A DNA stretch of 64,000 nucleotides from Escherichia coli (GCF_003018255.1 NZ_CP027440.1); one strand, 5' to 3'; counted from the first letter of the stretch, positions 51,431 to 63,872 are shown. Notes: a model not told the origin generated them from the letters alone. A program made the numbers and translations.

Positions 51431-52069
51431 ATGAAAAAGTTAACAGTGGCGGCTTTGGCAGTAACAACTCTTCTCTCTGGCAGTGCCTTTGCGCATGAAG
51501 CAGGCGAATTTTTTATGCGTGCAGGTTCTGCAACCGTACGTCCAACAGAAGGTGCTGGTGGTACGTTAGGAAGTCTGGGTGGATTCAGCGTGACCAATAA
51601 TACGCAACTGGGCCTGACGTTTACTTATATGGCGACCGATAACATTGGTGTGGAATTGCTGGCAGCGACGCCGTTCCGCCATAAAATCGGCACCCGGGCG
51701 ACCGGCGATATTGCAACCGTTCATCATCTGCCGCCAACACTGATGGCGCAGTGGTATTTTGGTGATGCCAGCAGCAAATTCCGTCCTTACGTTGGGGCAG
51801 GTATTAACTACACCACCTTCTTTGATAATGGATTTAACGATCATGGCAAAGAGGCGGGGCTTTCCGATCTCAGTCTGAAAGATTCCTGGGGAGCTGCCGG
51901 GCAGGTGGGGGTTGATTATCTGATTAACCGTGACTGGTTGGTTAACATGTCAGTCTGGTACATGGATATCGATACAACGGCTAAGTATAAATCTGGTGTT
52001 ACTACCGTGAAAGACTCGGTACGACTGGATCCGTGGGTGTTTATGTTCTCTGCCGGATATCGCTTTTAA
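51431..52069 (+). CDS. ompW: Outer-membrane protein OmpW
   Basis: ORF track 212 aa with signal peptide (MKKLTVAALAVTTLLSGSAFA) and C-terminal aromatic residue. Confidence 0.95.
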   Translation: MKKLTVAALAVTTLLSGSAFAHEAGEFFMRAGSATVRPTEGAGGTLGSLGGFSVTNNTQLGLTFTYMATDNIGVELLAATPFRHKIGTRATGDIATVHHLPPTLMAQWYFGDASSKFRPYVGAGINYTTFFDNGFNDHGKEAGLSDLSLKDSWGAAGQVGVDYLINRDWLVNMSVWYMDIDTTAKYKSGVTTVKDSVRLDPWVFMFSAGYRF

Positions 52070-52107: not shown

Positions 52108-52132
52108 CTGGTCATCAAATGACCAGTTTTTT
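52104..52132. terminator. Palindromic bidirectional terminator overlapping the integrase stop codon
   Basis: aaaa-ctggtcat-caa-atgaccag-tttttt; perfect 8-bp inverted repeat flanked by A-run and T-run. Confidence 0.65.
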
Positions 52133-53245
52133 CCACTCTTTACCGCGTACATCGTTGTAAATATCGGTCATTTTTTGATTCGAATGACCCAGCAAAATTT
52201 GGGTATCAATTCCCTGCTCCCTGAACAATCGCTCTGATAAAGATCTCTGCTCATGGAAAGAGGGTGGAGTGCCATTAGCGCGCCAGTTGTAATCCACAGA
52301 ATCCCGGGCTTTTTTAAATGCAACTGTCAACGTTGCTGGCTTAACCATCCCGCCGCGCTTAGCTGTCCCTTTAGCATGATGGTGGTGCAATAACCACGGA
52401 CTAAGAACGCAATCGCGACAGGATGACACTACATCATCCAGGGTGAGATTTAATTTATCGCAACGCAGAGCCAGAGGGATGGCAATCCGGGTTCCTGTTT
52501 TTTGCTGTTCGACATGAAGATAACCATCCCTGATATCCGAAAATTTCATTTTGCAAATATCTGAAAGGCGCTGGCCTGTCATCAGCGCCAGCAGCATACC
52601 ACGTTGTAAAAAGTAACCATCCTTTTCCGCTGCATTATAAATCATCATCCACTCATCAAAGGTCAGTCGTTGCCGTGATATCCGTACCTGTGGTTTTTTT
52701 GCCGATTCTGCAGGGTTAAAGCCTGGCGAGACATCGCCCGTTTGCTGGGCCTCCCGGAAAACATCAATCAGTACTTTCCTGAAAATTTGTCCCATTCTGT
52801 TATGTCCTTTTGCCTTGTAATCTTCCAGCACCGATACCACATCTTTTACGGTTATGGCATCTAATGGTCTGGTACCAAAACGTTCATCAAATACCCTGAG
52901 AGGGGATGCTTTCTGTTTCAGTGTGTTGAGTTTGATCTCTCCGTTTTCATATCTTTCCTGTTGAATTTTTCGGTAACTATTCAGAAAAACAGAAACGGTT
53001 GATGAACCACCGGTATCACGAATAATTTTCTCCTGCAGAGTGAGCATTTGTTCCATTTGTTGCCTGGCAAGACGGCTGTTCGCTTCTGCTGCAATAGCTT
53101 CTGCCTGTTTCTGGTCAATACTGCCGAGCCCGTGATTTTTTCCTGTTATGGGATGCCTGTAACGCCAGTAAACTTTGTTATTTCTTTTGTCAAAATACGG
53201 AGATAATCCCGGAACTTCAGTTTTATATTTTCGTGGGCGCGCCAT
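52115..53245 (-). CDS. int: Phage integrase (tyrosine recombinase, lambda Int family)
   Basis: ORF track 376 aa; C-terminal LLGHSNQKMTDIYNDVRGKEW resembles the lambda Int active-site region (H, R, catalytic Y). Confidence 0.9.
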   Translation of the reverse strand: MARPRKYKTEVPGLSPYFDKRNNKVYWRYRHPITGKNHGLGSIDQKQAEAIAAEANSRLARQQMEQMLTLQEKIIRDTGGSSTVSVFLNSYRKIQQERYENGEIKLNTLKQKASPLRVFDERFGTRPLDAITVKDVVSVLEDYKAKGHNRMGQIFRKVLIDVFREAQQTGDVSPGFNPAESAKKPQVRISRQRLTFDEWMMIYNAAEKDGYFLQRGMLLALMTGQRLSDICKMKFSDIRDGYLHVEQQKTGTRIAIPLALRCDKLNLTLDDVVSSCRDCVLSPWLLHHHHAKGTAKRGGMVKPATLTVAFKKARDSVDYNWRANGTPPSFHEQRSLSERLFREQGIDTQILLGHSNQKMTDIYNDVRGKEWKKLVI

Positions 53246-53471
53246 CTTCCAGTATCCTCTTCAAAGCAGGGTGATCTGTGGCGATCACTTCCGGCTTGTT
53301 TACCATTCCGACAAAGCGAGCTCGAGGATCCACTCGCCAGTGTCTTCCAACTTTTTTGGGGAGAGGAAATATCATTCCGGCTTTAGCGTATTTACTTAAC
53401 GTGCCCGGAGTAGGGACCGGTTCACTGAATTCCTCTTTTGCCCACTCAGTGAGCAGAATAAGTCTTGCCAT
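53223..53471 (-). CDS. xis: Excisionase (lambda Xis-like)
   Basis: ORF track 82 aa; LILLTEW...GMIFPLPKKVGRHWRV resembles lambda Xis; overlaps int start by 23 nt. Confidence 0.7.
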   Translation of the reverse strand: MARLILLTEWAKEEFSEPVPTPGTLSKYAKAGMIFPLPKKVGRHWRVDPRARFVGMVNKPEVIATDHPALKRILEDGAPTKI

Positions 53472-53535: not shown

Positions 53536-56007
53536 TTAAAAATCAGCCTGACTCGGGATCAGTTTTTGCCAGATGGCTGAAACGTATTTTGCCTGGTAAC
53601 GCGCATCGTGCAGCGCGTTATGGCGTTCACCTTCGAATGGAATAGTCGTTCTTGCGTCGAAATCCATCACCAGTCCCAGAGCAACCATCGTTCTTACATC
53701 GCGATCATTGGTGTAACGCCACGGGCAGGGGATCCCCTGCCGTTCATATGAACGGCGTAAAATCACGTTGTCGAAAGTTGCACCGTTACCCCAGACCTGA
53801 ACAAAAAATTCACCGGAGTTTTCGTCGATAAATTCCCGGAATTGCAGCAGTGCATCATCCAACGGGATTTCATCGGTCAGAATGGCGGATTGTGCTTCGC
53901 GTGACTGTTTCAGCCACCACTTAATGGTGCCCCGATCGATGACCCCGCCTGCGGTTTCCAGATCGATAGTTTTGCTGAATTCTGGCCCCATCTCTCCGGT
54001 TGCCGGATCAAAAAACTTACCGGCTATAGAGTTTATTGGCGCATCAGGATTTTTTCCCATTGTTTCAAGGTCAATCATCAGATGGTGCCACAACCTGCTG
54101 GTGGATGTGATTTCATGATGACCGTTCACTTTAATTAAGGGATTTGCTGTCTCGCCAGTTTTATTATCGCTGGCGTGATACTGATCGCTGACAGTGTTCT
54201 CCTTGTGCAGATGTTCAGTGCCTTCCATTTCCTCCGGATCATTTTCCTGAGCTTCAGCCTGATTCTCTTCATCGAATGTTTCCTGGTTGGTTGCGTTCCC
54301 CATCACCGCACCACAGTCAGGACAGTTGCCGCCACCGGTCTGACCGCATGCGGTGCAAACTTTTTCCGGTTCTTGTTGCACTTCTGGTTCAGGCAGTTTC
54401 GTTTCTGGCTCGTTTTGTAACGCATTTGGACTGTTTTGTTCCGCTTTCTGGTCGTTTTGTTCCGATTCGGGCTGGTTCTGGTTCACAGAATCGCGGGTTT
54501 CAATCCCCTTAACCCATTTCGGATCATTCGGGTCGCTAATCCCTTCAACAAATTCACCACGTGATGCAGCAAGCAATTTATCGGTGTCAGGCTGGCTGAT
54601 ATTGGCTGCCTGCATAATTTTGTTTACTTCGTCAGCGGTAACTTTTACCGGCTCTGGTTGTTCTGAATCTTCTGCGGTATCTGTATTTTGCTGTAAGCCC
54701 GTATATGTGCCATTTTTTCGGGCAAAATATTCTTCTTTTGAGATTTCGGTACCACCGGCAGCCAGCGCCTTGTCCAGGCCAGAAAGTTTGTTTGCCCTGC
54801 CGTATTTTTCCCCGTCCTTATCGGTAAAGACGAAATAAAACGGTCCTTCACGCTCTACAGATGGTTCAGCTTCCACCAGGATTTCATTTTTTTGAGAATT
54901 GGATTCCGCCGTCTCCACTGGATCAGTTTGTGCTGCTGACGACAGGATAGCATCAGCAGAGCTCTGGTCTGTTTCTTCATGTTCAAACACGCCCTTTGTC
55001 GTCAGGTATTCGCTGATGTATTTGTTCAGTGCAACGGGATCTTTGTGAATGTCGATCGGGCGCTCACGAACAAGGCCAAAAATAGTCTGACGGTCATAGC
55101 GAAGCGCATCAGGCTGTTTGCGCATTGATGCAGAGATACGCTTCCAGTCTTCGCGATCCTTGTCGATAACCTCATTTTTAGCCCAGCGATGGATGGTACC
55201 GTCAATGTTTCCGGCATCAATATCACCAGGCCAGAGAGCGTAAGCCAGCTCTTCATCCAGGGTTTTCCATGTCTGCTTGTATTCGCGACGAATGGCAGTA
55301 GTGACAGGGTTGATTTTTGCTGCTGAGTTTTCAGTGTGCTGTTGGTTGACTCTGGCGCGGGCCAGCTCAACAACAGAAGTATGTTTCCCGGTTTCTTTTC
55401 GTTCTGCTTCGCGACGTTTTTTCCAGGTGCGCATCTCTGCCTGAATTTCTGGCCATTTGGCACCAGGCTTACATTTATGCTTAACCCACCCGATGGCATG
55501 CAGTTTAATCTCCGGATACATGGCGTTAACTTCTGGCATTTTCATCAACGCTTCAACGATATGTCCGTCGAAGGTTGCCATGTCTTCCTGCAACAATTCC
55601 TGTGCGCTAATCACCATATCAACGGTGATGTTTTCACATGTGTCGAACTTAACCATGACAGCGTTCTGTACTTCAGGGGACAGCTTGTCAAAAGTGACGT
55701 TCATCGGATCTGATTCAGTCTCAACCGGGACAAAGGAAGCAGACGCCTCATCCCAGCGGTTTTCCAGCATATATTCAGCATCCCAGGAGTCGAGGGCTGG
55801 GCGGGGTGTACCGGGTTTATCCTCACAGACAAGAAATTTATAAGCGCAGTCCTGAGCAGCCGGATAATGTTCAAGGAATTGCCAGTGAAATTTTGCGCGG
55901 GCGCGACGTTCATCACCGGCTTCAATGGCTGTGGCCACAGCAACAGCGCCCTCGTTTTTTATTGCCTGTTCGTCAGGAATGGCGGCGCAAATAAATATTT
56001 TACTCAT
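53536..56007 (-). CDS. Large prophage exonuclease-like protein with C-terminal DnaQ-like (DEDDh) 3'-5' exonuclease domain
   Basis: ORF track 823 aa; C-terminus has motifs in order DLETMG, FDNVIL, HNALHDARY; CxxC...CxxC (CTACGQTGGGNCPDCG) mid-protein; acidic Q/E/N/P-rich linker. Sits in the exo/recE position after xis. Confidence 0.75.
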   Translation of the reverse strand: MSKIFICAAIPDEQAIKNEGAVAVATAIEAGDERRARAKFHWQFLEHYPAAQDCAYKFLVCEDKPGTPRPALDSWDAEYMLENRWDEASASFVPVETESDPMNVTFDKLSPEVQNAVMVKFDTCENITVDMVISAQELLQEDMATFDGHIVEALMKMPEVNAMYPEIKLHAIGWVKHKCKPGAKWPEIQAEMRTWKKRREAERKETGKHTSVVELARARVNQQHTENSAAKINPVTTAIRREYKQTWKTLDEELAYALWPGDIDAGNIDGTIHRWAKNEVIDKDREDWKRISASMRKQPDALRYDRQTIFGLVRERPIDIHKDPVALNKYISEYLTTKGVFEHEETDQSSADAILSSAAQTDPVETAESNSQKNEILVEAEPSVEREGPFYFVFTDKDGEKYGRANKLSGLDKALAAGGTEISKEEYFARKNGTYTGLQQNTDTAEDSEQPEPVKVTADEVNKIMQAANISQPDTDKLLAASRGEFVEGISDPNDPKWVKGIETRDSVNQNQPESEQNDQKAEQNSPNALQNEPETKLPEPEVQQEPEKVCTACGQTGGGNCPDCGAVMGNATNQETFDEENQAEAQENDPEEMEGTEHLHKENTVSDQYHASDNKTGETANPLIKVNGHHEITSTSRLWHHLMIDLETMGKNPDAPINSIAGKFFDPATGEMGPEFSKTIDLETAGGVIDRGTIKWWLKQSREAQSAILTDEIPLDDALLQFREFIDENSGEFFVQVWGNGATFDNVILRRSYERQGIPCPWRYTNDRDVRTMVALGLVMDFDARTTIPFEGERHNALHDARYQAKYVSAIWQKLIPSQADF

Positions 56008-56102: not shown

Positions 56103-56291
56103 TTATCCAGCCGGTGTTTCGTTATTCAGGTACAGCGATACTTTGTTTAACGGGAGACATTCACCGGAAATTTTTTGCTCGTCTCTTGCCTGATGGCAGG
56201 ATTCTTTACTGGCATAAATTCCGGTAATCACATTCTGTGGCTCACCCGTTATAAGAAAAACCGTCATTACCAGTGCAAATGCAGAAGTCAC
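56103..56291 (-). CDS. Small prophage early protein with N-terminal hydrophobic segment (62 aa), function unknown
   Basis: ORF track; GTG start preceded by SD ggaggg; start overlaps the upstream gene stop as GTGA; N-terminus MTSAFALVMTVFLITG. Confidence 0.55.
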   Translation of the reverse strand: MTSAFALVMTVFLITGEPQNVITGIYASKESCHQARDEQKISGECLPLNKVSLYLNNETPAG

Positions 56292-56476
56292 TGCTGCCCT
56301 CCGAAAATGCCAAGTTTAAGAAGGGCAATTCTGGAGAGTATGGAATTATCATTGAGAAGATAAGGCTCATATTTTCTCATCCTGATGGCGTCCTCAGTAA
56401 ACTCCCGGTTACTGAGCAGAATACCAATATTAAAACACCCTTCAGACGTATTAACGTTTGGTAGTGACGTTTCCAT
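56288..56476 (-). CDS. Small prophage early protein (62 aa), function unknown
   Basis: ORF track; ATG preceded by SD gagga at 7-nt spacing; coupled to the downstream gene. Confidence 0.55.
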   Translation of the reverse strand: METSLPNVNTSEGCFNIGILLSNREFTEDAIRMRKYEPYLLNDNSILSRIALLKLGIFGGQQ

Positions 56477-56650
56477 TATCGCGTCCTCAACAATGAATTT
56501 TGTGATGTGGTGCCTGGTGCCTCCAGGTGACGTTAACCAGTTAACAATTAACGCCGGATTGTTAGTTGATGTCTGTTACGCCAGTAAAAGACCGCTTGTT
56601 TTAACTGTTCCGCGTGCGCTTAGCCGCATTCACCGCATCACAAAATACAC

Positions 56651-56680
56651 TTTAAAAATGGCGGATATCCATTTCCGCCG
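56651..56680 (-). terminator. Putative rho-independent terminator (minus strand)
   Basis: Stem ggcgga/tccgcc with 8-nt loop, followed on the minus strand by ATTTTTAAA. Confidence 0.45.
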
Positions 56681-57004
56681 AATCACCAGAAAAGTGATAA
56701 CAGAGGTTGTTGTGGCGGTGTTGTCACTCAGGCGTATGGTCAACCTGACAACCCGGTGCATTTTCTGGAGCAATGGAGGAAGCCCCAGCCATACTTACCG
56801 CCGCGCCATTTCGCGGATTGCCACAACCGGAAGCGCACGATCGAATTACATTTAACGACGACATATACAGAGAGACTAACTTCGCCGAGCGCTTTCGTGT
56901 TGTGTGCCTGCTTTTAACCACGTCAGGCGAGGTGGACCTGTTATTCCCCAACAACAAGGAGCTTGTTAATCTGGATATCCCCAACAACAATAAGAGTATT
57001 GAAT

Positions 57005-57448
57005 GTGATCGCTGAATTAACGGCAGCAATGACGGCTATTCGTGAAACCGCTCAGATTACAAAACTAATGAACGAGGCAAAAACTCAAGCTGAAGTAAAT
57101 GCGGCTATTGGTGAACTGAACTCAAAGCTTGCATCTATTCAGCACGAATGCGTGTCTCTCGTTGAGCTGGTGAGCACTTATCAAGAAATAAATGCTTCTC
57201 TCAAAGCTAAAATTGCAGAATTTGAAAACTTTGAGGCTCAGACGGAAGGTTATATCCTTAACCAACTTGAGTCGGGAACTTTTGTGTACTCGAAGGAGGT
57301 AACCGTGAACGGCGGCAGCATAATCATGCATCTTTGTCCAAAATGTTTTGGACAAAAGATAGTATCGATACTTCAACCATTCCCGGTTAGAGAACATGAG
57401 TTTTTCATAAAAGCAGGTGCCTCTACTGTGAAAATCAGTTTCTTATGA
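57005..57448 (+). CDS. Hypothetical prophage protein on the opposite strand to flanking early genes; predicted coiled-coil N-terminal half, Cys-containing C-terminal region
   Basis: ORF track 56963..57448; protein-like composition while overlapping minus ORFs look antisense-like (L/S/R/F-rich). Start uncertain (GTG 57005 with weak SD aagag; alternatives TTG 56963, ATG 57029). Confidence 0.5.
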   Translation: MIAELTAAMTAIRETAQITKLMNEAKTQAEVNAAIGELNSKLASIQHECVSLVELVSTYQEINASLKAKIAEFENFEAQTEGYILNQLESGTFVYSKEVTVNGGSIIMHLCPKCFGQKIVSILQPFPVREHEFFIKAGASTVKISFL

Positions 57449-58080: not shown

Positions 58081-58500
58081 TCAGGAGGCTTTTTGTTTTT
58101 TCTTTCGCGCTAATTCTTCATAAATTGCGTTGTACTTCTGTTTTTTCTCCTCAAGAGTTTTTAAAAGTTCATCAGTTTCACTGTCAGGGAGTTCATCAAG
58201 AAGTTCAATGATGATTTTTTGCTTCGGACTTAACTCCTGATAGAAACGCAGGCTTCCGCTTTCTTCAGTGTCCTCCCCCAGAAGGTAAGTTGGTGTTGTT
58301 CCGATAAGTGCTGCCAATTCTTTCAGTTTCTCTCGACGGGGAATTGCCTCTCCATTAAACCATTTACTAACCGCTTTGGGTGTTAGCTTCATTCGACGGG
58401 CAATTTCTGCCTGCCTTCCGTGTTGTTCAAAGCCAGCATTTTCACAGGCTAGCGCAAGCCTGCTGGCGAACTCTTTACGCGCTTCATCTTCATGAACCAT
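58081..58500 (-). CDS. Prophage repressor (CI functional analogue, XRE-type HTH, no S24 peptidase domain)
   Basis: ORF track 139 aa; HTH region RRMKLTPKAVSKWFNGEAIPRREKLKELAALIG; divergent from a cro-like gene; acidic C-terminal half. Confidence 0.75.
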   Translation of the reverse strand: MVHEDEARKEFASRLALACENAGFEQHGRQAEIARRMKLTPKAVSKWFNGEAIPRREKLKELAALIGTTPTYLLGEDTEESGSLRFYQELSPKQKIIIELLDELPDSETDELLKTLEEKKQKYNAIYEELARKKKQKAS

Positions 58501-58579: not shown

Positions 58580-58846
58580 ATGAGCCATACAACACTTGCA
58601 GATGTAATCAAAGCAGTTCGCGTTTCTGTTGTAGCCGATGTTTGCGGTGTCAGCCAAAGAGCAATCTACAAATGGATGAATAATGGAAAATTACCGCGCA
58701 CAGAATATACAGGCGAAACAAATTACGCTGAAAAAATTGCTCTGGCATCAAACGGATTATTTTCTGCTGATGCGGTTTTGACTATTGGCAGGATTAAGCC
58801 TACAGCGAATGAATCACTGGCGGTGAACAATGAAAATCACCCCTGA
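58580..58846 (+). CDS. Cro-like HTH regulator (YdaS-like)
   Basis: Internal ATG of ORF 58508..58846 with SD gagggtg; HTH ADVCGVSQRAIYKWMNNGKLP; divergent from the repressor. Confidence 0.7.
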   Translation: MSHTTLADVIKAVRVSVVADVCGVSQRAIYKWMNNGKLPRTEYTGETNYAEKIALASNGLFSADAVLTIGRIKPTANESLAVNNENHP

Positions 58847-59381
58847 ACAGGTTTGTGAGGCTCTGGATGCCTGGGTATGCCGACCAGGAATGACACAGGA
58901 GCAGGCGACGATATTAATCACGGAAGCATTCTGGGCTCTGAAAGAACGCCCGAACATCGATGTTCAACGCGTCACGTTTAATGATGGCGAGGTTGATCAA
59001 CGGGCGCTGGGCGTTAATCGAGTGAAGATATTCGAACGCTGGAAGGCTATCGACACCAGGGATAAGCGTGAAAAATTCACGGCGCTGATTCCGGCAATTA
59101 TGGAGGCTATCCGGGTAAGTGATTTCAGGTTGTATTGTGAAATTACTGACGGAAAAAGCATTACGTACATGATCGCCGGGTTAAACAAAGAGTATGGCGA
59201 TGTGGTGGAGTCCGGGCTGCTTTTTGCGGATCCAGTTGTTGTGGAACGTGAGACTGATGAGCTTATAGAAAAAGCCATTGCTTTCAAGCGTGCGTATCGT
59301 CAGCAATACCAACATTACTTTGCAGATAAACAAATATCTGTCTGGGGTTCGTATGAGTATCGATGCACTACGATGGGCTAA
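58830..59381 (+). CDS. Hypothetical protein in the CII position of the early-right operon
   Basis: ORF track 183 aa; overlaps the cro-like gene end by 17 nt; family not recognised. Confidence 0.6.
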   Translation: MKITPEQVCEALDAWVCRPGMTQEQATILITEAFWALKERPNIDVQRVTFNDGEVDQRALGVNRVKIFERWKAIDTRDKREKFTALIPAIMEAIRVSDFRLYCEITDGKSITYMIAGLNKEYGDVVESGLLFADPVVVERETDELIEKAIAFKRAYRQQYQHYFADKQISVWGSYEYRCTTMG

Positions 59382-63506: not shown

Positions 63507-63659
63507 AAACGGTTTGCGGGGAAAGAAGAGTTAAGTAGAATTGCTGCGGGTGCTTGAGGCTGTCTGCCTCGGGCATGCCGCCGTAAGGCAGACAGAGAAA
63601 AGCCCCAGTTAACATTACGCGTCTTGCAGGACGCTTAACATTAATCTGAGGCCCAATCT

Positions 63660-63872
63660 ATGCTTCACAAACGTAGGTTAGCCTCTTACGTGCCGAAAGG
63701 CAAGGAGAAGCAGGCTATGAAGCAGCAAAAGGCGATGTTAATCGCCCTGATCGTCATCTGTATTACCGTTGTTGTGACGGCACTGGTAACGAGGAAAGAC
63801 CTCTGCGAGGTACGAATCCGAACCGGCCAGACGGAGGTCGCTGTCTTCGTAGACTACGAATCTGAGAAGTAA
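63660..63872 (+). CDS. mok: Mok-like reading frame (N-terminally extended frame required for hok translation)
   Basis: ORF track 70 aa MLHKRRLASYVPKGKEKQAMKQQKAM..., parallel to recalled K-12 MokC; same frame as hok. Confidence 0.5.
   Translation: MLHKRRLASYVPKGKEKQAMKQQKAMLIALIVICITVVVTALVTRKDLCEVRIRTGQTEVAVFVDYESEK
63717..63872 (+). CDS. hok: Hok/Gef-family type I toxin (HokD/RelF-like, 51 aa)
   Basis: MKQQKAMLIALIVICITVVVTALVTRKDLCEVRIRTGQTEVAVFVDYESEK is near-identical to recalled HokD/HokC; SD aaggagaag upstream of ATG 63717. Confidence 0.85.
   Translation: MKQQKAMLIALIVICITVVVTALVTRKDLCEVRIRTGQTEVAVFVDYESEK

Follow-up and report, generated by a model that had tools for sequence, protein, structure and literature searches.

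The 64,000-nucleotide stretch of Escherichia coli DNA analysed here (GCF_003018255.1, NZ_CP027440.1; below, the window) carries a lambdoid prophage integrated beside ompW. Close to the integrase gene of this prophage lies an open reading frame (ORF) that encodes 823 amino acids from an ATG start. Its position (53536..56007, minus strand) agrees exactly with that of a prophage protein proposed by a first-pass annotation made from the sequence alone, and PGAP calls the same ORF in an E. coli locus that is 99.6% identical. The product combines a long N-terminal scaffold, in large part homologous to RecE, with a C-terminal exonuclease domain of the DEDDh type, and these comparisons characterise it best as a RecE-type scaffold on which the nuclease has been exchanged. 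The gene and the parts of its product are listed with the confidence of the AlphaFold2 model (predicted local distance difference test, pLDDT) and the ratio of nonsynonymous to synonymous substitution rates (dN/dS).

53536..56007, minus strand: YdfE-type exonuclease gene, intact ortholog of the K-12 Qin pseudogene ydfE (ORF list; match to PHROG 2082 over residues 1-823 of 823)
55708..56007, minus strand: module N1 (residues 1-100), small alpha/beta domain, YdfE_N region
55393..55695, minus strand: module N1b (residues 105-205), helical domain, YdfE_C region (pLDDT >90; dN/dS 0.13)
54988..55275, minus strand: module N2 (residues 245-340), helical, common to the RecE N-terminal region (BLASTP; pLDDT >90; dN/dS 0.06)
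54712..54846, minus strand: module N3 (residues 388-432), beta-hairpin and helix, GPFYF...GRANK (pLDDT >90; dN/dS 0.04)
54373..54612, minus strand: Mid region (residues 466-545) with the family-wide motif RGEFVEGISDPNDPKW (about 80% identical to RecE 446-520; dN/dS 0.11)
54310..54357, minus strand: CxxC-x7-CxxC zinc knuckle CTACGQTGGGNCPDCG (residues 551-566; C551, C554, C562 and C565; dN/dS 0.05)
54088..54309, minus strand: acidic, fast-evolving linker between scaffold and nuclease (residues 567-640; net charge -12; dN/dS 0.81)
53569..54087, minus strand: DEDDh 3'-5' exonuclease domain, Pfam Rv2179c-like, DexA-related (residues 641-813; Pfam and PDB match; dN/dS 0.10)

The DEDDh domain and its scaffold

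The sole significant Pfam-A hit of the protein is Rv2179c-like (PF16473), which covers residues 641-813 along the complete model (1-177 of 177) with an E-value of 2.9e-61 and 206.7 bits. The three motifs of DnaQ-like exonucleases, reported at first in their canonical order, are DLETMG (Exo I, residues 646-651, nt 54055-54072), FDNVIL (Exo II, residues 745-750, nt 53758-53775) and HNALHDARY (Exo III, residues 796-804, nt 53596-53622). All three lie inside this full-length match, which rules out a chance resemblance. The DEDDh catalytic set is complete in the window protein (D646, E648, D746, H796 and D801). In an alignment of seven sequences, with fused and stand-alone relatives, D646, H796 and D801 are invariant and E648 and D746 are retained in six; they are changed, to K and A, solely in P0265. 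This DEDDh-type relative, with DLKTM and FANVIL in place of the usual Exo I and Exo II motifs, is possibly a catalytically dead variant.

A sequence search of the PDB matched 8KEL and 8KEN alone, deposited as a 227-residue 'Exodeoxyribonuclease' (8kel_A: E 3.9e-6, 28.6 bits, residues 643-790), and returned no RNA exonuclease structure at E <1. In the alignment the catalytic D119 and the S87A and D90A changes line up, and on this basis the two entries are taken as the structures of T4 DexA in PMC12153337. The Pfam and PDB matches agree with the DEDD fold predicted for the C-terminal domain by the first-pass annotation; the fold is DEDDh/DnaQ-like, and 3'-5' polarity is expected. T4 DexA belongs to the same DEDDh subfamily and is likewise phage-encoded. 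However, the similarity in sequence is low, and DexA and, apparently, its homologue EcD (PMC12153337), the latter compared by description only, are stand-alone proteins of about 200 residues without a scaffold.

In the AlphaFold2 model, residues 1-470 form four confident small modules (1-100, 105-205, 245-340 and 388-432) with disordered acidic linkers between them. Alignment with K-12 RecE is possible over residues 262-625, which correspond to RecE 278-591 (BLASTP, E 3e-60, 37% identity over 369 alignment columns). Module N2 is aligned from RecE 278-337 onward, and N3, which has the lowest dN/dS of the whole protein, sits in a gap of this alignment. The identity to RecE is about 80% over residues 466-625, a part that spans GISDPNDPKW of the Mid region (54514-54543), the zinc knuckle and the acidic linker. 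Both the knuckle and the linker had been recognised from the outset as a zinc ribbon and an acidic low-complexity stretch. The knuckle occurs in K-12 RecE too and is absent from several relatives; the stretches that flank it are acidic, and the net charge of the whole protein is -55. Homology to RecE ends at RecE residue 591, and the match to the PDDEXK-like domain of RecE begins at 615. A Chi octamer, GCTGGTGG, is located on the plus strand at 54097-54104, inside the gene where the scaffold gives way to the nuclease.

The protein is not simply RecE. Against the RecE equivalog model (NCBIfam NF007259/PRK09709) it scores 265.9 bits, below the cut-off of 1269, and in Pfam scans it contains neither the PD-(D/E)XK domain DUF3799, found at residues 615-850 of K-12 RecE, nor Exonuc_VIII (PF06630), found there at residues 2-178. 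The nuclease had thus been correctly set apart from that of RecE, whereas the homology between residues 262-625 and RecE 278-591 had been overlooked. RecE from the Rac prophage of K-12 is close in size (866 residues), has the homologous non-catalytic region and occupies the same operon position, upstream of xis and int in a Rac/Qin-like prophage. The differences concern the catalytic domain (PD-(D/E)XK and 5'-3' in RecE, DEDDh and expected 3'-5' in the window protein), the N-terminus (Exonuc_VIII in RecE, YdfE-type over the first 260 residues here) and the partner gene, in that an overlapping recT lies next to K-12 recE but none beside the window gene. A sister variant in E. coli (locus L004) combines the RecE N-terminus (Exonuc_VIII) and the mid region with the DEDDh domain.

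Residues 1-255 are 90% identical to the product of the K-12 Qin pseudogene ydfE, which has the same neighbours (dicB-ydfD-ydfE-intQ). Because of this identity and the shared Qin neighbours, the window gene is identified as the intact form of ydfE. The K-12 copy, in contrast, is cut by IS2 and has nothing past about residue 255, the nuclease included. Membership of the Pfam families YdfE_N (PF27430) and YdfE_C (PF27432) is taken from precomputed hits of newer Pfam releases on homologs, namely the 99%-identical P0001 and 119 others, together with the identity to K-12 ydfE.

The dN/dS ratio is 0.04-0.18 in every folded module (0.04-0.13 in the comparison with locus L005), with relatives at a synonymous divergence (dS) of 0.36-0.40, while the linkers reach 0.26-0.93 in the same comparison. 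The low ratios of the folded modules are a sign of purifying selection, which argues that the gene is maintained and functional.

Exchange of C-termini and neighbouring genes

Mapping of modules on representative proteins shows that an N-terminal scaffold, either YdfE-type or RecE-type, is combined with at least four C-termini. The first is DEDDh, including the E. coli protein with RecE N-terminus and mid region described above. The second is PD-(D/E)XK, as in RecE, the third a domain of about 260 residues with the motif KKSLTDAxKKALSxLGFSADV, and the fourth a short 'LTIAALQGLCANPA' tail. This fourth variant, with its conserved 'YQQQLTIAALQGLCANPA...' tail, was seen in P0126, P0243, P0138, P0256 and P0263 (for example L014:5001-7109) and belongs to PHROG 26058; it has no recognisable enzyme domain, and no partner gene was present in the two P0126 loci inspected (L014 and L015). 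In P0194 (703 residues) the RecE N-terminal region is joined in frame to RecT (Pfam RecT, E 2e-42) just after the first CxxC of the zinc knuckle, which could be a natural recE-recT deletion fusion or an assembly artefact.

The genes that follow differ with the C-terminus. An overlapping RecT-like gene follows the PD-(D/E)XK version, and a 'Mu Gam-like end protection' gene follows the annealase version, in one case with a Gam-like gene in front as well. For the DEDDh version, xis and int or int alone follow directly in all nine contexts inspected, and neither an annealase nor a RecBCD inhibitor was found in any of the nine. Six of these contexts are chromosomal loci of E. coli, spread over three integration sites; the other three are phage Tritos, a prophage in the chromosome of GCA_029873235.1 and a short contig from a read archive. 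Partner genes thus track the effector type, since RecT, a Mu-Gam-like gene or no partner goes with particular C-termini. The lack of an adjacent annealase, reported by the first-pass annotation, was confirmed in two ways. A PHROG scan of every ORF from the exonuclease gene to the repressor found no annealase, and tblastn with RecT, Erf, phage SSB, Abc2, Rad52-like, Gam-like, Mu-Gam-like and RecE nuclease queries gave no match anywhere in the window, nor in any of eight related loci, one of them a near-identical prophage of 49.9 kb. In this prophage (L008, NZ_CP067426.1 3072500-3122400) a gene for an ompC-like porin lies amid the tail genes; it also contains an IS3 insertion, two tRNA genes and a toxin-antitoxin pair of the RelE/ParE type, and RusA is its only annotated recombination-related gene.

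Two groups of relatives differ clearly from the window gene. The stand-alone exonuclease of phage mEpX2 (182 residues) is 54% identical to the C-terminal domain and likewise belongs to a lambdoid early-left operon, but its gene lies between SSB and Abc2, next to Erf, in an Erf-SSB-exo-Abc2 module. The window gene is instead fused to a scaffold of 630 residues, with neither an annealase nor SSB nor an anti-RecBCD gene beside it. The scaffold-annealase fusions (PHROG 2489; P0131, P0134 and others) have the same YdfE_N/YdfE_C scaffold and the same locus before xis and int, but they end in a Rad52-like annealase and a coiled coil and are followed by the Mu-Gam-like gene. They are possibly the 'RecE-2' proteins of PMC12315714, which that paper describes as having no nuclease domain and a role that is unknown. 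According to the same paper (Genome Research 2025), Rec modules of lambdoid phages contain DnaQ-like 3'-5' nucleases, and 'sporadic' genes of the DnaQ type also occur 'very near int', where the window gene lies; DnaQ-type nucleases next to int are a class already in the literature. Assignment to a Rec module as defined there was rejected, as the gene adjoins xis and int and no single-strand annealing protein (SAP), SSB, Gam or Abc2 accompanies it.

The gene itself is also known already, under PHROG 2082, the Pfam families YdfE_N, YdfE_C and Rv2179c-like, and the PGAP name 'exonuclease'. Labels in use are 'exonuclease' or '3'-5' exonuclease' (PGAP), 'exonuclease' (PHROG 2082) and, in some phage records, 'exonuclease VIII'. 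Of 5426 complete E. coli genomes, 4802 match DNA of the full-length gene, 3533 of them over 80% or more of its length, and 4060 (about 75%) contain DNA of the nuclease domain, in up to seven copies per genome. What was named at first as speaking against the proposal, a common annotated exodeoxyribonuclease VIII family with a nearby annealase, is half borne out: the family is common and sometimes carries that name, but no annealase had been missed. A search for full-length homologs was filled by near-identical E. coli proteins and yielded mainly names and Pfam labels, and many database entries of the family are fragments or frameshifted. The distribution of the scaffold (residues 1-640) is narrow, with 244 clusters at 50% identity among 1.84 billion representatives; the scaffold matches listed for AFDB50 are from Enterobacterales. 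No paper on the function of ydfE was found in a literature search.

The order of genes in the window is yciB, yciC, ompW, int, xis, the exonuclease gene, a DUF1482/ydfD-like gene, dicB and several small ORFs, followed by a cI-like repressor gene (58081-58500), cro, a YdaT-like/CII-like gene (58830-59381) and replication genes. The prophage end on the integrase side abuts ompW (51431-52069). The closest neighbours of the exonuclease gene are:

52115..53245, minus strand: integrase gene int (ORF and PGAP of the 99.6%-identical locus)
53223..53471, minus strand: excisionase gene xis, immediately downstream of the exonuclease gene (ORF and PGAP of the 99.6%-identical locus)
56103-56291, minus strand: ydfD-like DUF1482 gene, upstream operon partner of the exonuclease gene
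56288-56476, minus strand: dicB, upstream operon partner of the exonuclease gene

The ydfD-like gene and dicB adjoin the exonuclease gene in all six E. coli chromosomal contexts and in phage Tritos. A scan for a promoter or terminator of the gene's own gave no clear signal, with counts below the shuffled expectation, and DicF, expected upstream of dicB, had no match at the Rfam threshold. A sub-threshold match to STnc100 (33 bits, where the gathering score is 47; E 6.7e-5) lies at 56444-56661 on the minus strand and overlaps the start of dicB, and a terminator-like hairpin is found at 56679-56660. Within the early-left region, but on the other strand, is an ORF for 161 residues (56963-57448, plus strand; PHROG 1244) with a helical region and a CPKC motif. 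Its position is analogous to that of sieB in Rac, similar plus-strand ORFs are annotated in relatives, and it may represent a moron or serve in exclusion. In the right arm of the prophage, a strong match to sok antitoxin RNA (63548-63722, plus strand, 117.7 bits) overlaps an ORF for 70 residues (63660-63872); this is a hok/sok-type toxin-antitoxin locus, as is hokD in Qin.

Possible functions of the fused exonuclease

With a probability of roughly 0.45, we favour the view that the gene encodes an early-left-operon 3'-5' DNA exonuclease on a RecE-type tether, which trims 3' ends and works together with host RecBCD and RecA. The gene is the last of the early-left (pL-type) operon, and from this place its product is expected to be made during lytic growth or induction. 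The nuclease sits at the end of a 'beads-on-a-string' scaffold of about 630 residues homologous to the non-catalytic part of RecE. Most likely, this scaffold would deliver it to the sites where RecE or the scaffold-linked annealases act, such as linear DNA ends and intermediates of recombination or replication. There it might trim 3' single-stranded tails or flaps; for example, 3'-tailed ends could be blunted so that RecBCD can load, or 3' flaps could be trimmed to leave a paired primer end.

Cooperation with host RecBCD and RecA, rather than with a partner encoded by the phage, is suggested by the absence of an annealase and of a RecBCD inhibitor together with an excess of Chi. In the near-identical prophage locus there are nine Chi sites against 2.3 expected from composition, and the 49-kb prophage itself has eight, three on one strand and five on the other. 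About half of the lambdoid phages are described as lacking recombinases and having Chi over-represented (Bobay et al., PMC3784561). The strongly Chi-rich LLS class was considered for this prophage and rejected, because with eight Chi in 49 kb the over-representation is modest. The whole window has 13 Chi, where shuffled sequence predicts 1.8; such a number is usual in E. coli DNA.

The end-blunting role is modelled on the 3' single-stranded DNA exonucleases of E. coli, which blunt ends for RecBCD. Several points weigh against the favoured view. Rv2179c, after which the Pfam family is named, has been described as an exoribonuclease, so that RNA stays a candidate substrate. No experiment on the fused architecture was found in the literature, and fold searches of the scaffold returned no informative relative. 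According to PMC12315714, 3'-5' exonucleases generally inhibit homologous recombination rather than promote it, and DnaQ-type genes next to int are explicitly not counted among Rec-module proteins. What the N-terminal region of RecE does is given as unknown in PMC11611040, which makes targeting by the scaffold a conjecture.

A wider proposal is more doubtful. The RecE/YdfE N-terminal region might be a modular platform of Enterobacterales prophages that offers interchangeable DNA-end effectors at a single site (a 5'-3' PD-(D/E)XK nuclease, a 3'-5' DEDDh nuclease or a Rad52-like annealase). The DEDDh version would then provide a hitherto unrecognised, annealase-independent pathway of 3'-end trimming by which lambdoid phages without a recombinase exploit host RecBCD and RecA, or else a widespread barrier, based on DNA ends, raised by cryptic prophages against other phages.

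The protein could instead serve prophage defence or superinfection exclusion by degrading incoming DNA, for instance that of T-even phages modified with 5-hydroxymethylcytosine (5hmC), in the manner of EcD (the HREX strategy). This is unlikely. EcD, a plasmid-borne DexA homologue from E. coli, is reported to digest T4 DNA but not unmodified DNA and to protect against T4, and DexA homologues are stated to be most prevalent in Escherichia and absent from K-12 (PMC12153337). That distribution fits the present family, whose nuclease domain occurs in 4060 genomes out of 5426 but is missing from the K-12 copy, which IS2 interrupts ahead of it; many copies are moreover in prophages that may be cryptic. 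However, EcD (HAK9828821.1), compared by description only, is no more than a putative member of the family, and it is apparently a small stand-alone protein and not an 823-residue fusion. A repressed early-left operon beside xis and int would be an atypical position for a moron, and PADLOC gave no hit for the gene and its small neighbours. Of the DexA residues W152 and D169, proposed for recognition of 5hmC (PMC12153337), the first is aligned with Thr in the window protein, an invariant Trp lying three residues earlier, and the second with an Asp that is Gly in most relatives. D90, described there as a tetramer contact, is also aligned with Asp; the phmmer alignment is weak in this region. Defence would in addition leave the RecE-type nucleases and annealases of the same scaffold unexplained.

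Another candidate role is scavenging of host DNA or host takeover, in which oligonucleotides and fragments would be converted to mononucleotides for phage DNA synthesis in the lytic phase, as by T4 DexA. For that purpose the conserved scaffold of 630 residues, common to recombination proteins, would be superfluous, and the stand-alone relatives are located in recombination modules. Lambdoid phages, moreover, do not as a rule degrade the host chromosome for nucleotides. Scavenging is therefore improbable, even though DexA is the closest solved relative and host DNA scavenging is one of its stated roles (PMC12153337). The exonuclease gene is also co-transcribed with the host-directed dicB and ydfD, the latter annotated as 'lysis protein' in K-12.

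There is still less to recommend a role in anti-defence, where the enzyme would remove immune nucleic acids with a free 3' end (retron multicopy single-stranded DNA, Argonaute guides or linear oligonucleotide signals) or the phage 3' single-stranded DNA that triggers sensors. An early-expressed phage nuclease without a phage partner would suit such a role, DEDD enzymes that degrade short nucleic acids are on record (PMC11706625), and the highly acidic linkers could mimic nucleic acid. The present analysis found no specific evidence for it, though; the other effectors on the scaffold are recombination proteins, and cyclic signalling nucleotides offer no 3' end to a DEDDh exonuclease.

It is quite improbable that the protein acts as an RNA 3' exonuclease, as Rv2179c, on transcripts or small RNAs of phage or host. 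The Pfam family is entitled '3'-5' exoribonuclease Rv2179c-like', many database entries are named '3'-5' exoribonuclease', and the DEDDh TONDOs act on RNA phage genomes (PMC13344964). But the sole PDB sequence matches, 8KEL and 8KEN, are taken to be the T4 DexA DNase, and the scaffold relatives as well as the stand-alone relatives occur in contexts of DNA recombination. The TONDOs, moreover, are set apart by their authors from the remaining defence-associated DEDDh domains on the basis of sequence (PMC13344964).

That the gene is decaying and no longer functional, a remnant of recE after domain shuffling in defective prophages, as fragmented or frameshifted entries, the K-12 pseudogene and P0265 without two catalytic residues might suggest, is nearly refuted by the selection data (dN/dS 0.04-0.13 in all folded modules at a dS of about 0.4-0.6), the ORF being intact, located in a complete-looking prophage of 49 kb and in the sequenced phage Tritos, and conserved in thousands of genomes.

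Meaning for RecE and E. coli prophages

The ydfE-type gene is among the most widespread prophage genes of E. coli and is often mislabelled 'exonuclease VIII'; its function is a prediction from sequence. The gene itself is no discovery, and its mild interest lies in a tether shared by RecE and YdfE for alternative DNA-end effectors. To our knowledge, the one established effect of full-length RecE is a boost to linear-linear recombineering. The exchange of the nuclease for one of expected opposite polarity, together with the Rad52-like alternative, suggests that the N-terminal region of RecE serves generally to tether enzymes that act on DNA ends. A 3'-end trimmer on this tether could be part of how the recombinase-less lambdoid phages, about half of the group, make use of RecBCD. 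If the modular platform proposed above is real, it would open a way to understanding the N-terminal 600 residues of RecE, for which an explanation has long been lacking.

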